This document shows, piece after piece, positions 52,458-56,669 of a stretch of DNA of 64,000 bases. Positions within the stretch are counted from its first letter, which is position 1, and each line of letters begins with the position of its first letter. Source of the DNA: an uncultured Verrucomicrobiae bacterium (lineage in GTDB: Bacteria; Verrucomicrobiota; Verrucomicrobiia; Limisphaerales; Palsa-1400); the NCBI GenBank assembly GCA_963764165.1, contig CAVXRD010000002.1, positions 2,048,001 through 2,112,000 of the forward strand, given 5' to 3'. A program made the position numbers and the translations under genes. The notes under the pieces are model-generated. The model saw only the letters and a list, made by a program, of their open reading frames with translations. It searched no databases and was not told where the DNA came from.

Positions 52458-52582
52458 GGGACATGACAAACGAAACATCGATTGTTCAGGCGGGATCGGA
52501 AGCAAAACATCGACGGGGATGCGGAGCCAGGAGCCTTGCGGGCGGATGGTTGAGGAACCAATAATATTGGGGCGGCGACGCA

Positions 52583-54265
52583 GAGACTGTCTCAAAACGT
52601 TTTAGTCTGGCCGATCTGGTTATATGGGCACCAATAGGGGCTGTGGAAACGGGTGTCAACTTTTAGTTGTCAGAGCGTGGCTGGCGTCAGCGATGACGCC
52701 AAGCTTCCCTTTCCCTCCTTTTTTAGGCCGCCATCGCCAAATTTCCTTCAACCGCGGCGGTTTTGACTTCCATTTTCGGCGTCTGGACCCGGGCCTGCCA
52801 CTTTTTATAGAGGATTCGCAGGTTCAAGGTGGCGCATAACAAGGCCCATTGGGCTTGCACGGCTTCCAGACCCCAAACTGTCCAACGCCGAAAGCCGTCG
52901 TGTTGCTTGAGCTGCCCAAACCGGCGTTCGATGATCTCTTTGCGCTTTCCATAAAGCGCGGCGGGTCCTGGCTCTTGCAGCCGGGCCCGCATGGCTTGCA
53001 CCAGCGTGGTGTGCGGCCACACTTCGACTTGCCGCCCTTTGGGATCGCGGCTGCAGAGGGCGCGCACGGGACAGTCTCGGTGATGGCAGCGGAAGCGCTC
53101 AACGGTCTGGCCTTTCTTGGTGGTCTGGCCTTCGTGGTCCAGAAGGCGCTCTTGCGGGCAGGTGACGGTGTGGGCCGCCTCGTCATAATGAAAATGCTGC
53201 GTCGCGTAGGCGTTGTCGTGGGCTGGCTTGCCCTCCGCCGGCGGGGCCAGCACATTCATCTGCTGTTCCACGGCCGCTTTCAAGTCGGCCCCGCCCCCAT
53301 AGCCGGCGTCGGCGGCGGTGAGGGTTGGAATGGCCGCCGGACCGAGGTTTTGCCTCGCTTCTTCAATCATGGGGACCAGCTGGCCGGCGTCGGTTTCCTG
53401 GCGGGTGGCTTGACAGGCGACCATGATGCCCTCCTGGCTGTCGGCCACCGCCTGGGCGTTGTAGGCAAAGCGGTTGGTGTCGCCGACTTTCATCCGGCGC
53501 GCCTCCGGTTCGGCTGGATGGTAATGGTGGCGCCCGTCGGCCTGCAGCTGGGCCAGGCCTTTTTTGATTTCCTCGCGCAGGGCCTGGCGCTGGGCCAACC
53601 CGGCGGGCAGCCGGCAGCCCGGTGCGCTGGAATCCTGGTTCTCCGCCACGACTTTGAGCTCGATTTCCTCCAAGGCGCCATCCAGCTGGGCCAGGAGCTT
53701 CTCCATGTAAACCTTGCTCCAGCCCTGCGGCCCGCTGCAGGCGGCTTGAATCTTGGTGCCGTCCAACGCTTGCAAGGCAAATCCCACCGCCCCGGTGCGG
53801 AGGGCCAGCTGCACGGTTTGCTTGAAAACCTGGCGCAGGGCCTTTTTGTTTCCGTCCCAGAACCGCCAGAGGCTGTTGTGGTCGGGGGCGTTGAGCCCCG
53901 TCAGCCACAGCAGCGAGACATGCTCCGTGCAGGCGGTTTCCAGCTTGCGGGTGGAGCGAATGCGGTGGAAATAACCGTAAAGCCAAATCTTGAGCAGGAG
54001 GCTGGGGGCATAGGGCGGACGGCCTTCGGCGGCGGCGGGAATGACAAACCCAAGCTGGGGCAGATCCAACTGGTCGACAAATTCGCGCAGGAAGCGGGCG
54101 GGATGGTCGGCGGACACCCAGTCCTCCAGGGCGGGCGGGAGGAGGAACTGCTGTCCGTAATCAGGGGCAATCGGTTGAGCCATATTTGTTGAACGGCATT
54201 GTCAACTAAAGGCTCACATATTGTCAAATACATTCCTCAAAAAACAGAAGTTTTGAGACAATCTC
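52583..54265 (-). mobile_element. IS1182-family insertion sequence, copy 2 (1,683 bp, target duplication CGCA)
   Basis: Terminal inverted repeats GAGACTGTCTCAAAAC / GTTTTGAGACAATCTC; inserted in GGGCGGCGA[CGCA]GCGCCGCCCTAC. Confidence 0.93.
52723..54183 (-). CDS. IS1182-family transposase (same protein as 37009-38469)
   Basis: Identical translation in the ORF track. Confidence 0.95.
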   Translation of the reverse strand: MAQPIAPDYGQQFLLPPALEDWVSADHPARFLREFVDQLDLPQLGFVIPAAAEGRPPYAPSLLLKIWLYGYFHRIRSTRKLETACTEHVSLLWLTGLNAPDHNSLWRFWDGNKKALRQVFKQTVQLALRTGAVGFALQALDGTKIQAACSGPQGWSKVYMEKLLAQLDGALEEIELKVVAENQDSSAPGCRLPAGLAQRQALREEIKKGLAQLQADGRHHYHPAEPEARRMKVGDTNRFAYNAQAVADSQEGIMVACQATRQETDAGQLVPMIEEARQNLGPAAIPTLTAADAGYGGGADLKAAVEQQMNVLAPPAEGKPAHDNAYATQHFHYDEAAHTVTCPQERLLDHEGQTTKKGQTVERFRCHHRDCPVRALCSRDPKGRQVEVWPHTTLVQAMRARLQEPGPAALYGKRKEIIERRFGQLKQHDGFRRWTVWGLEAVQAQWALLCATLNLRILYKKWQARVQTPKMEVKTAAVEGNLAMAA

Positions 54266-54405
54266 CGCAGCGCCGCCCTACTTCAATTTGGCAGGGCGGA
54301 CCTGCGTGTCCGCCCCAATATTCTCCCACTATCAATCTCGCGCCCCGCCGGTGGAAATGCGTTTTGGCGTTTGAGAAACGCCTCAATCAAGGCCAATGTG
54401 ATCGA

Positions 54406-54645
54406 GTGAAAATGATAAGCGGACATTATTGATGGCAAGGTTGTCGTCCTGGACGAACCAACGACTATGAAAGCCAACACGAAGGTCAAGATCGTCACCC
54501 CTACGGGGGACGATTCCTCCGCTTTAGCCGCTGATTGTGCCATTTTGTCGGAGCCCGTATTCGAAAAATATGGGACAACCCTCTCGATGCCGACTACGAC
54601 ACAATATAATTGCGGCGCCATTTGCGTCGTGCGGCCTGCATCCTT
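54406..54645 (+). pseudogene. Decayed toxin-antitoxin pair: frameshifted antitoxin plus truncated start of a PemK/MazF-like toxin
   Basis: Across frames reads VKMISGHY/DGKVVVLDEP...LSEPVFEK/IWDNPLDADYD; overlapping ATG at 54587 gives MPTTTQYNCGAICVV. Confidence 0.55.
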
Positions 54646-54647
54646 GC

Positions 54648-56355
54648 AGTGCTATTTCGGAAAACTCTTCATTTTTGGCAAAGTTTTAGGCGGCGAGTTT
54701 GGTCAATTTGTCCACGTCCGCTTTGCGGGCGGTCAAGAGCGCAGTAATGGTGGTGCGCCCTTTCTCGGTGACAACATAGCGGTGGGTGCCGCTGACTTTG
54801 GCGATCAAGCCATGCGCTCGCAGGAGCCGCAGTCGGCGTCCAATCCAGCCCATTCTGCGTTTGAGTTCGCGGTCATCGCACCGGCTGGGAAAATAGGCCT
54901 GCCGAATGTCTCGACTGCGAAAGCCGTTGAGGGCGTACTCTCCCTGGCTGACCATTTCCAAAAGGCGTCCGTCCTCCGGGGCCCAAGGATTGAGGGCGCG
55001 GTAGCGCCGCCCCGCCTGCCGCAGGGGCTTGCAGCATTTTTCAACCCATTGGAACAGCGGCACCGTTCCGCTGACGGATCCCAACGCCTGCAAATAACGT
55101 TCATTGGCCCGGTGAGAGATTTCTTTGCGCCGTTTCAGGTCGGCCAGCCCCCGGCGCAATGTCAGCCAGCGTTTGGCCTCCTTGGGCCGGCCTTCCGGTT
55201 TGCGATAAACTTTAAATTCCTCCGGGTGCGTCACCGTCGTTTCGATCCGCAAAACCGAGCCCTGCTTGTCGTAAAATTTGATCGAGTTGCCGTTAAGACT
55301 GTGCTTGACCCGCACGCCCTCCGGCCGCCGTTTGGTGTCGCTGGTGATTTCGCCCTCAAACTGGCCGTACACCCTGCCCGTGCTGATGGGAACGTATCGG
55401 CCCAAAAACCTCATCACGTCCGCGCTGGAAAAGGAACTGATGGCATGGTGAACCAGGCTGGGATAAAGCCGGGCCAGGCTCTCGGGCTCCTTGAAAATGA
55501 CATCGGTGGCATATTCGGTGTCCGAAGCGCTCCAATAGTATTTGAGGTTCAGCGGCTGGCAAATCGACCGGTGCAGGGGATGAACCTCATTGAGCAGCCG
55601 GCCCAGCTCCTTGGGCCAGTCAGTTTGCAGTTGCTGGTCCAGCAGGCCTTGAGCGCGCCCCATATCGGCCACCCGCAAAAAGGTGTTCTCCTTCTTTTGA
55701 TAGGCAATGCCTGCCTGATCCAACTGCTTTCCCAGCCAATGCCGGCCATTGAGGCAGATATTAATCTGGAAGGGAAACCAGGTTTGCAGGCGCAGGTGCA
55801 TGAAGCCAAACTTGGAATGCTCGAAATAGAAATAAAGATGGCTGCACTTGCGCTGCTGAACCTTCACCTCAATGTGTTTGGTTTGGGGGTTTCCGACGAC
55901 TTGAAAGGACATGCAGGGTTCCGTGCAATTGAGAATGGCGATCAGTCCCTCGGTGATTTTATCGCGGGCGGCAATCTTGCGCGCCACCTCCTCCTTGCTG
56001 GTTTGGCTGGAGGGGACGAAAAGAAAAGGCCGCCCGGCTGTTTGTGCCAGGGCCCTGGCTTTGTCTTTGACCGCTTTGGTGGTCCGTTCGACCAACTGGC
56101 TGAAATCCTTGATCAGAATGTGGCAGGCGTTCAAGTAGGCCTCCATCACCTGGGGGCCGTACAACTGGCGCAGCGTCCCGCGCAATCGCAGGCGATCAAA
56201 GCCCGAAAGAACTCCTAGAATTGAGGAAGCATGTTTGTGTACAAAAGAGTTGGAAGCGCCGTCATGGGTAAGCGGTTTGTTTTGCATACATCCAATCTTA
56301 CCCAGACCGGACGGCGCTTTCCTCTTATTTTTGGTTGCGGCTTTGCCGCGCTGTG
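54648..56355 (-). mobile_element. Candidate rolling-circle-type mobile element lacking inverted repeats (ends approximate)
   Basis: Single large ORF with short flanks; GGTTGCGGC-TTT-GCCGCGCTGTG hairpin at one end; lies beside a truncated gene. Confidence 0.5.
54686..56287 (-). CDS. Transposase-like protein with Rep_trans-like motifs and C-terminal winged helix
   Basis: TEYATDVIF and IKFYDK..SVLRIETT motifs; C-terminal LRLLRAHGLIAKV.GTHRY.VT.KG resembles a winged helix. Confidence 0.7.
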   Translation of the reverse strand: MQNKPLTHDGASNSFVHKHASSILGVLSGFDRLRLRGTLRQLYGPQVMEAYLNACHILIKDFSQLVERTTKAVKDKARALAQTAGRPFLFVPSSQTSKEEVARKIAARDKITEGLIAILNCTEPCMSFQVVGNPQTKHIEVKVQQRKCSHLYFYFEHSKFGFMHLRLQTWFPFQINICLNGRHWLGKQLDQAGIAYQKKENTFLRVADMGRAQGLLDQQLQTDWPKELGRLLNEVHPLHRSICQPLNLKYYWSASDTEYATDVIFKEPESLARLYPSLVHHAISSFSSADVMRFLGRYVPISTGRVYGQFEGEITSDTKRRPEGVRVKHSLNGNSIKFYDKQGSVLRIETTVTHPEEFKVYRKPEGRPKEAKRWLTLRRGLADLKRRKEISHRANERYLQALGSVSGTVPLFQWVEKCCKPLRQAGRRYRALNPWAPEDGRLLEMVSQGEYALNGFRSRDIRQAYFPSRCDDRELKRRMGWIGRRLRLLRAHGLIAKVSGTHRYVVTEKGRTTITALLTARKADVDKLTKLAA

Positions 56356-56669
56356 CCTCTGCGCCTCCGCGCCCTTGCGTTAAAATGCCCCTGCGGCGGT
56401 GACCGAAAACGAAAACAGAACGGGACATGAACGCCAAGACGCCGAGGCCCAAAGGCGTAAAGATTTTGCCGATTCGTTCACATTCCTCGTCTTGTCCATG
56501 GCGAACAATGTGTGATTACCTTGGTTTGACACTTTCTGTTCTCCGGTGCGCAGTTGTGTTTGCTTTCATTGTTGTTGGGGGACAATTGTTGATTTTGCGA
56601 CTTTATGTCGTCATCGGTAAATAGGATTAATGGTGTTGGTTGTAAATCTTTCGAAATGGGCAAAGCTTT

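Follow-up and report, generated by a model that had tools for sequence, protein, structure and literature searches.

Transposons that move by rolling-circle or other single-strand routes have been described in several groups, i.e., IS91/ISCR, IS200/IS605, Helitrons, and Replitrons, and all of them employ HUH enzymes according to the accessible text of the papers on them (including PMC13181058 and PMC4778049). Proteins of the Rep_trans type, as far as the accessible parts of PMC13107129 and PMC5714925 go, are described only as plasmid or phage initiators or as relaxases of integrative and conjugative elements (ICEs). Here we analyse a stretch of 64,000 nucleotides from an uncultured Verrucomicrobiae bacterium (contig CAVXRD010000002.1, positions 2,048,001 to 2,112,000; the whole stretch is called the window), which carries at window positions 54648-56354 an element of 1707 bp that an earlier note on this DNA had taken for a candidate rolling-circle transposon with a Rep_trans-like enzyme. 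With a probability of about 0.66, we favour an IS91-like insertion sequence that would insert by single-strand (rolling-circle) copy-in and whose nickase would be a tyrosine enzyme with the fold of the TATA-binding protein (TBP) instead of a HUH enzyme. As part of this reading, the nickase would be related to Rep_trans and Rep-Arvir initiators, with a link at the sequence level being absent. A literature search that covered listings and the openings of abstracts, with subscription papers and ISfinder largely outside its scope, brought up no account of a transposase of the Rep_trans type.

In IS91, the tetranucleotide that serves as target borders oriIS at the right end, terIS and its palindrome lie on the upstream side of the gene, and the substrate is the bottom strand, as the accessible text of PMC13181058 describes. 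Like IS91, IS801, IS1294, and the ISCR elements, the element in the window has neither terminal inverted repeats nor a target site duplication, and a short target motif adjoins the end downstream of its gene (PMC13181058, in part); a subterminal palindrome at the upstream end is a further likeness. In contrast, the IS91 family employs HUH enzymes with two tyrosines, whereas the protein of the element lacks a HUH motif and is modelled with a TBP-like fold. The target of the element is C^RC inside repeats resembling repetitive extragenic palindromes (REP-like repeats), whereas that of the IS91 family is CTTG or GTTC. Helitrons, whose enzyme is a fusion of a HUH domain and a helicase, are eukaryotic, and the element has no helicase. 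According to the accessible part of PMC4778049, a 3' hairpin terminates Helitrons, and the hairpin of the element lies where this terminator lies. DDE insertion sequences differ from the element, which lacks terminal inverted repeats and target duplication. IS200/IS605 elements and TnpA-REP involve small HUH enzymes and two hairpin ends; the element resembles them in its hairpin-marked end, the absence of a target duplication, possibly DNA-guided targeting, and the association with REP-like repeats, but its protein has 533 residues and gives no match to PF01797 (Y1 HUH).

That the element is mobile is virtually certain. Its source genome (G000, consisting of contigs C1, C2, and C3; related genomes and loci carry G and L numbers) contains eight full, near-identical copies, so it is not single-copy; five of the eight are identical across all 1707 bp, and flanks beyond 12 nt are unrelated, with an identity of distal flanks of at most 24 of 48 nt. 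The gene occupies 94% of the element. As stated in the earlier note, there are no terminal inverted repeats (4 of 20 terminal positions match) and no target site duplication: four of the eight copies have none, and what the other four have is just the GC/GC belonging to the host repeat unit. Since it is lacking in four of the eight copies, a 2-bp GC duplication of the target was rejected. The element is a recently expanded, autonomous, unclassified insertion sequence and probably represents an unnamed class of transposon, as the note had supposed in placing it outside the standard families of insertion sequences (IS). Of the span first proposed, 54648-56355, the start holds; the true end is 56354, and position 56355 is the first target base. 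Three copies (C2:2224337-2226044, C2:841663-843370, and C3:154721-156428) carry one additional base at nucleotides 918-922 of the open reading frame (ORF), so that the frame stops at residue 310. These bases (two A, one G) lie at most 4 nt apart at one GTAC site, the only one affected of the four GTAC sites in the element; GTAC is strongly avoided in the genome (observed/expected 0.39), and the 27 copies of an IS1182-family element in the same genome show no internal indels, in contrast to these copies. The additional bases may be long-read errors at a methylated motif or a real hotspot. At C2:837993-843370, two full copies lie less than 2 kb apart, separated by a degenerate non-autonomous copy and another end fragment, an arrangement suggesting local hopping or a dense cluster of targets.

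Insertion follows the rule GNC^RCRRRG inside short host repeats. On the coding strand, the left flank ends with G-N-C and the right flank starts with RCRRRG in all eight copies. In the window, the right half of the target, an RCRRRG unit of the host repeat, is located at 54638-54647 and the left half, tandem 8-nt units of the host REP-like repeat ending in G-N-C, at 56355-56385, both on the minus strand. The CTCTGCG-type repeat described before at the upstream end is the insertion target itself. If the flanks are joined without the element, intact 8-nt host repeat units result exactly, and in other genomes the target repeat unit is likewise restored upon removal of the element. A paralogous empty repeat on C3 near position 217870 reads straight through the insertion point and thereby fixes the cut at C^RC. 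The earlier note had looked to empty sites for the definition of the ends: the paralogous one exists, and a base-exact orthologous one was not found in four genomes of the same genus, which share the neighbouring aminotransferase gene at 78-81% and are too distant for a base-exact site. AAC-led repeats of the left-half type occur 20 times in G000 versus 3 times in a shuffled sequence, bare 14-nt target motifs are barely enriched (127 versus 105 shuffled), and enrichment is confined to the AAC-led and tandem forms. The targets of relatives are genome-specific REP-like units.

Both ends are conserved together with the gene across many phyla. The hairpin GCGGC-TTT-GCCGC is present at 56337-56349 (plus strand), where the earlier note had placed it as mark of the upstream end, and 5 nt separate it from the 3' end of the non-coding strand. 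Its 3' arm, GCCGCRAC, is found within 400 nt upstream of the gene in 67 of 80 loci at protein identities of 40-73%, which bears out the conservation that the note had thought worth testing; a looser search gives a hairpin-like match, in some cases a poor one, in 135 of 143 loci. In relatives, the loops vary freely and the stems are extended on both arms. Folding energy alone is not above chance (z of -1.45 and -0.76). The downstream end (54648-54685, plus strand) has in relatives the consensus YWG-Y-NNN followed by a target starting with RC, and in the window bases 54651-54652 are able to pair with target bases 54646-54647 over a 3-nt loop. At the upstream end, the first two bases vary among relatives (AC, CC, CT, AT, or GC); as relatives start with CC, CT, AT, or GC, the idea of a mimicry of the target (ACAG) by this end was given up. 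The same type of junction is seen in copy pairs of five of the six multicopy genomes compared, the pair L107/L109 differing. Searches of Rfam gave one chance-level match, and a scan for promoters and terminators remained at chance level.

Non-autonomous derivatives occur as well. G000 contains a non-autonomous derivative of 415 bp with both ends and no ORF (C3:324405-324819) and, beyond this and the full copies, five clear sites resembling the upstream end and two resembling the downstream end. In G067, copies of a non-autonomous derivative that has both ends and measures about 240 nt follow one another head to tail, with one copy for each 8-nt repeat unit, and so provide independent confirmation of both element boundaries. 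These tandem arrays, and doubled hairpin ends that form REPIN-like palindromes, are located at L190:3935-4240 and L198:4640-5360, and many element copies of this genome have in common about 560 nt of extra (passenger) DNA between hairpin and transposase gene (L190:1760-2320), in which a divergent ORF appears, by eye, to be a candidate gene for a four-helix-bundle (Avd-like) protein. In G063, the terminal 50 bp or so of the downstream end are tandemly duplicated in three of four copies (L088:4060-4180, L122, and L127), and a short relic in G000 (C1:76717-76775) shows a tandem duplication of about 15 bp of the terminal part of this end. At L065:3870-3900, a degenerate upstream end comes immediately after a downstream end, as in a head-to-tail (ori-ter) junction, and L092 is possibly a second such case.

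The single gene (54686-56287, minus strand) encodes a putative transposase of 533 residues, P0001, as basic as first described (pI 10.0; 89 K+R versus 51 D+E), which seems to consist of a TBP-like catalytic domain (residues ~12-406) and a MarR-like winged helix (residues ~409-533). Among 104 family sequences, P172, E258, Y339, R347, and E349 are invariant, and D31, D262 (103 of 104 each), and K341 (97 of 104) nearly so. D31 (56195-56197), located on strand E23-38, is a candidate metal ligand corresponding to Rep_trans motif N' and stands in an F-D-x-h-x-h-x-G context with the spacing of RepC. E258-Y-A-T-D262 (55502-55516; strand E251-265) is a candidate second acidic ligand, for which RepC has D-L-A-F-D. 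Y339 (55271-55273; strand E334-341) is the candidate catalytic tyrosine within a YDK motif, and R347-x-E349 (55241-55249) is equivalent to motif IV; all these features lie on the minus strand. The motifs of RepC follow one another in the same order, i.e., F-D-x-h-x-h-x-G, D-L-A-F-D, I-R-I-Y-N-K, and R-V-E. The earlier note had named TEYATD (residues 257-262), IKFYDK (336-341), and LRIE (346-349) as equivalents of the Rep_trans motifs, to which the first motif is an addition. Their order, the invariant residues, and RxE agree with this proposal, whereas the Arg of RxD and the xxE of motif III do not. According to the definitions accessible in PMC5714925, motif N' (Asp) and motif IV (W/LxRxE) are present as D31 and L346-R347-x-E349.

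The predicted model of P0001 is of high confidence (pLDDT 92.5, pTM 0.83; 93.4 pLDDT for the catalytic domain folded alone) and places all candidate catalytic residues on β-strands, where Rep_trans proteins have theirs as well (PMC5714925, accessible part). When the catalytic domain was compared by VIA with 48,161 chains, TBPs (Z of 6.3-7.9, the best with an rmsd of 4.1 over 178 aligned residues), RepDE 4cwc (Z 6.9, rmsd 4.9, 177 aligned), and RepSTK1 4cij (Z 6.7, rmsd 4.9, 187 aligned) were the only chains among the best 50 entries that aligned over at least 170 residues. The 4cwc alignment starts at residue 24 of P0001 and residue 39 of RepDE, which would bring D31 into register with D46 of RepDE if the strand is ungapped; D46 is a metal ligand according to the accessible text of PMC13107129. 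In Foldseek lists, 4cij has the highest probability (0.90-0.93, E 0.006-0.025), and A0A345MNV4, named as an inovirus Rep_trans protein in the accessible part of PMC13107129, matches with a probability of 0.99 (E 1.5e-3). Thus, the structural comparison with Rep_trans, which the earlier note had proposed, yields whole-domain matches to 4cwc and 4cij at a Z of only about 7, which is middling. Residues 409-533 (54689-55063, minus strand) match MarR-type winged helices as well as ArsR and TubR chains (VIA Z of 7-8, with weak HMM matches) and are likely to bind DNA, so the model agrees with the Rep_trans-like enzyme fused to a winged helix that had been suspected. A DDE, HUH, or recombinase core, of which the note had seen no signature, does not occur among the 50 best structural matches of the catalytic domain; the HUH relaxase TraI is a weak Foldseek match at rank 23 (probability 0.30), and P0001 contains no H-hydrophobic-H motif, its only conserved histidines being H329 and H492. 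The enzyme is modelled as a TBP-like fold with an invariant tyrosine and acidic residues on β-strands, and a tyrosine chemistry like that of Rep_trans proteins seems probable.

A four-motif Rep_trans pattern speaks for this assignment, as it fits 66 of 104 family members and 115 of 116 RepC-like proteins but none of 120 proteins with DUF7845 and none of 4180 background ORFs. Several observations weigh against the assignment. The pattern had been written after viewing both RepC and the family; of three independent PF02486 matches, one fits the three-motif core, two fit the tyrosine and RxE part, and none fits all four motifs. The RxD of motif I is missing, the family reading Q/E/D-x-E258-x-A-x-D262 without Arg, the xxE part of YxKxxE in motif III is absent, and no clear equivalent of motif II (T/SxY/ExG) exists in columns 320-335. 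Structural scores are middling, with no Z of 8 or more for the catalytic domain alone; the best Foldseek E-value belongs to an unrelated cyclase (4xrw), phosphoglucomutase and START-like domains reach Z of 6-7.6 over about half of the domain, and BamC reaches 9.1 over 106 residues. Membership in PF02486 itself does not hold, as no match at E≤1 was found for 38 members or in G000 and hhalign to RepC gave a probability of 0.1; PF25227 does not match P0001 or the 38 members, and hhalign was negative against HRPV-3 ORF9 and against a 33-sequence alignment of DUF7845 (probability 0.2), the references being single or shallow and the probabilities 0.1-0.2 overall. Neither Pfam and NCBIfam on five proteins nor Pfam on the 38 members detects a significant family, PHROGs on nine proteins and PDB sequences give no family over the N-terminal 400 residues and only weak winged-helix matches, and the named clusters of the ESM Atlas offer no usable match for the whole protein or residues 20-405. 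Finally, neither a circle or tandem junction nor a one-ended copy was found in G000, and the eight copies have no flank or junction in common; the missing circle junction and one-ended copy count against a rolling-circle route. Four sequencing runs contain small shares of this DNA, with no RNA run among those listed, and the contigs obtained from such reads belonged to other organisms and offered no usable joint.

Set beside the Rep_trans initiators and MOBT relaxases (PF02486; pT181 RepC, RepDE 4CWC, RepSTK1 4CIJ), the element enzyme is similar in its modelled TBP-like fold with a candidate tyrosine in a β-strand and in the order D ... D/E ... YxK ... RxE. It differs in lacking any HMM or profile match, in the larger catalytic part (~395 versus ~270 residues), in QxE/ExE instead of RxD, in the missing helix between YxK and RxE, in the fused winged helix, and in being the sole gene of a multicopy insertion element and not of a plasmid, phage, or ICE. 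With Rep-Arvir (DUF7845/PF25227; RepSNJ2 and HRPV-3 ORF9, as described in the accessible part of PMC13107129) it shares a Rep_trans-like domain followed by a MarR-like winged helix, a similar length (545 versus 533 residues), and a hairpin as cis element. In contrast, Rep-Arvir proteins replicate archaeal viruses and plasmids and have a KHYY motif, sequence similarity is absent, and 0 of 120 fit the motif pattern. The element has the layout of IS91 and the build of a Rep_trans/Rep-Arvir initiator, and the sequence test that defines each of them is negative. The case that the enzyme works like Rep_trans without being a PF02486 member is good but not decisive.

As to polarity, the non-coding strand reads target-GY^NNN-RC ... 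hairpin-5 nt^G-target. Among 52 elements, the distance from stop codon to downstream end is 36-54 nt, a range partly set by the filter used, which is a further point of caution, and that from hairpin to D31 is 120-602 nt. The earlier note had regarded the hairpin as origin; because the layout equals that of IS91 and the target motif adjoins the downstream end, it is rather the downstream end that would probably act as origin, i.e., as the 5' end of the transferred non-coding strand, with the hairpin as terminator in analogy with IS91 terIS and Helitrons. Thus, the polarity first proposed is probably reversed. Copies in G067 that are truncated at their 5' side were set aside as evidence on polarity because, by eye, other elements seem to have interrupted them.

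There is covariation between element base -4 and target base +1. Among 56 distinct elements, 38 have T/A, 13 C/G, 5 C/A, and none T/G; before collapse, which skipped two frameshifted rows, the 80 right-end contexts comprised 55 T/A, 18 C/G, 7 C/A, and no T/G. These 80 were kept from 99 distinct contexts, and 19 (L038, L057, L065, L067, L073, L080, L082, L084, L085, L092, L094, L095, L096, L107, L109, L110, L149, L166, and L174) were dropped as truncated, of other spacing, or off-pattern; L092 contradicts the pattern. In G000, base -4 is C and the target base is G in six and A in two of the eight copies. T/A and C/G are Watson-Crick pairs; on the non-coding strand, and only there, C/A corresponds to a G.T wobble, and T/G, which does not occur, would on that strand be A.C. 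On the tree, the two traits show 10 and 9 changes, and a test that accounts for kinship finds 3.8 independent pairs changing the same way and none the opposite way (median sign-test p 0.125, not significant), so that the covariation is suggestive only. It hints at a DNA-guided choice of target, and actual pairing between element and target bases has slightly less than even odds in our estimation; symmetric recognition of GY-NNN-RC by a protein could produce the same pattern, which, like the sign test, tells against pairing. In the hairpin stems of 51 left ends, the positions that are not Watson-Crick comprise seven A.C when read on the coding strand (G.T on the opposite one), none of the reverse, and five others, but only four of the seven wobbles are clean matches and two of these belong to one clade, again a reason for caution.

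In the mechanism that we favour, Y339 and a metal held by D31, E258 or D262, and E349 would cut the downstream end (GY^R) on the non-coding strand, after which the enzyme would stay linked to the 5' end of the element. The target would be cut at GY^G and its 3'-OH joined to this 5' end, possibly after positioning by 2-bp pairing of the target GY with element bases +4/+5. Host replication would displace the strand, the final cut (N^G) as well as the second joint would be directed by the hairpin, which lies 5 nt short of the other end, and the winged helix would bind the element ends. An unlikely but not negligible alternative is that the same Rep_trans-like enzyme acts in the peel-and-paste manner of IS200/IS605, cutting both ends on single-stranded DNA that is already present, excising a circle, resealing the donor, and finding the target by pairing. 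The lack of target duplication and inverted repeats, the end hairpin, REP-like repeats as targets, and the junction at L065, where a downstream end is directly followed by sequence resembling an upstream end, would all suit it, and the covariation resembles the DNA-guided targeting that IS608 uses. However, only one hairpin is conserved, and the two bases with which the upstream end starts differ among elements, so that in many of them the GY context would not arise anew at a circle junction; moreover, Rep_trans enzymes are replication initiators (PMC5714925, accessible part).

Less probable still is the original polarity, in which the enzyme would nick the upstream hairpin as origin, in the way of pT181 and SNJ2 initiators, and the downstream end would terminate. 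The hairpin is the most conserved DNA feature, and the origins of Rep_trans and Rep-Arvir proteins are hairpins in the accessible text of PMC13107129 and PMC5714925, but here the boundary lies 5 nt outside the stem and not in the loop, whose sequence varies freely, the target motif adjoins the opposite end, the spacing is fixed on the downstream side and varies on the upstream side, which carries extra DNA, and the wobble pairs speak for the non-coding strand, where the hairpin lies at the 3' side. It seems slightly more improbable that the resemblance to TBP reflects a common α/β arrangement and that the enzyme employs another chemistry without phosphotyrosine. Z values below 8 throughout, negative profile comparisons, and the lack of a usable match among named Atlas clusters speak for this possibility; against it stand the invariant tyrosine in a β-strand, the D, E/D, and RxE, which follow the order of RepC in a local context like that of RepC, whole-domain matches only to TBP and Rep_trans among the best 50, and exact joints without loss or gain, which fit transesterification. 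Least credible, and very improbable, is that the ORF is cargo and a Y1 HUH transposase of the host, REP-associated or IS200-type, moves the element. G000 does contain ten PF01797 matches, located elsewhere than the element, and the targets are REP-like repeats, but the gene fills nearly the whole element, both ends are linked to it across 13 named phyla, and its invariant residues are of a catalytic type.

Judged from sequence matches, the family is widespread in bacteria. Of 8000 scored candidates, 7801 match it, cluster representatives number 6879 at E≤0.001 and 875 at 1e-30, and at least 558 pattern matches in species genomes are confirmed, out of the 597 listed. The 80 best loci come from 13 named phyla (foremost Verrucomicrobiota with 23, Acidobacteriota with 13, Planctomycetota with 10, and Pseudomonadota with 9; 10 are unassigned), counts that include short contigs of metagenome-assembled genomes, possibly misbinned. 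G067 alone has 46 family matches. Among relatives, the distribution is patchy, with 9 of 61 sampled genomes including G000 and none of the four in the genus (85-95% complete, mostly fragmented) containing the family; phages gave no family match and plasmids 17 records with weak matches. In named records, members are annotated as hypothetical protein or ArsR regulator, and the family has therefore probably been missed in IS counts. Taken as one joint claim, a widespread unnamed transposase superfamily on a TBP-like Rep_trans fold, moving by rolling-circle transfer of the non-coding strand, reading its target partly by base pairing with the origin end, and contributing through derivatives to the GCGCGGC-loop-GCCGCAACC hairpin repeats of these genomes, remains tentative and on balance rather doubtful. 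If a Rep_trans-fold transposase exists, it would represent an independent origin of rolling-circle transposition from another initiator superfamily, and if the pairing occurs, changed element bases would retarget the element. Since exact ends, a target rule, and candidate catalytic residues are at hand, a mini-element would allow a direct test, and the capacity to insert into intergenic repeats without a scar could serve as a tool.

Downstream of the element, at 54410-54619, lies a decaying toxin-antitoxin pair, presumably PemK/MazF-like, which consists of a frameshifted antitoxin gene and the first codons of the toxin gene, which breaks off some 10 codons in when compared with the intact pair of G004. 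The earlier note had placed the downstream end right after a truncated toxin gene; the fragment is real, with 79% DNA identity to the intact antitoxin-toxin junction in G004, and the similarity ends at 54619, 28 nt before the element. Farther on, at 52579-54268, is the IS1182-family element (NF033551) whose 27 copies in G000 are near-identical; it often adjoins another abundant repeat, which starts near 54265 in the window.

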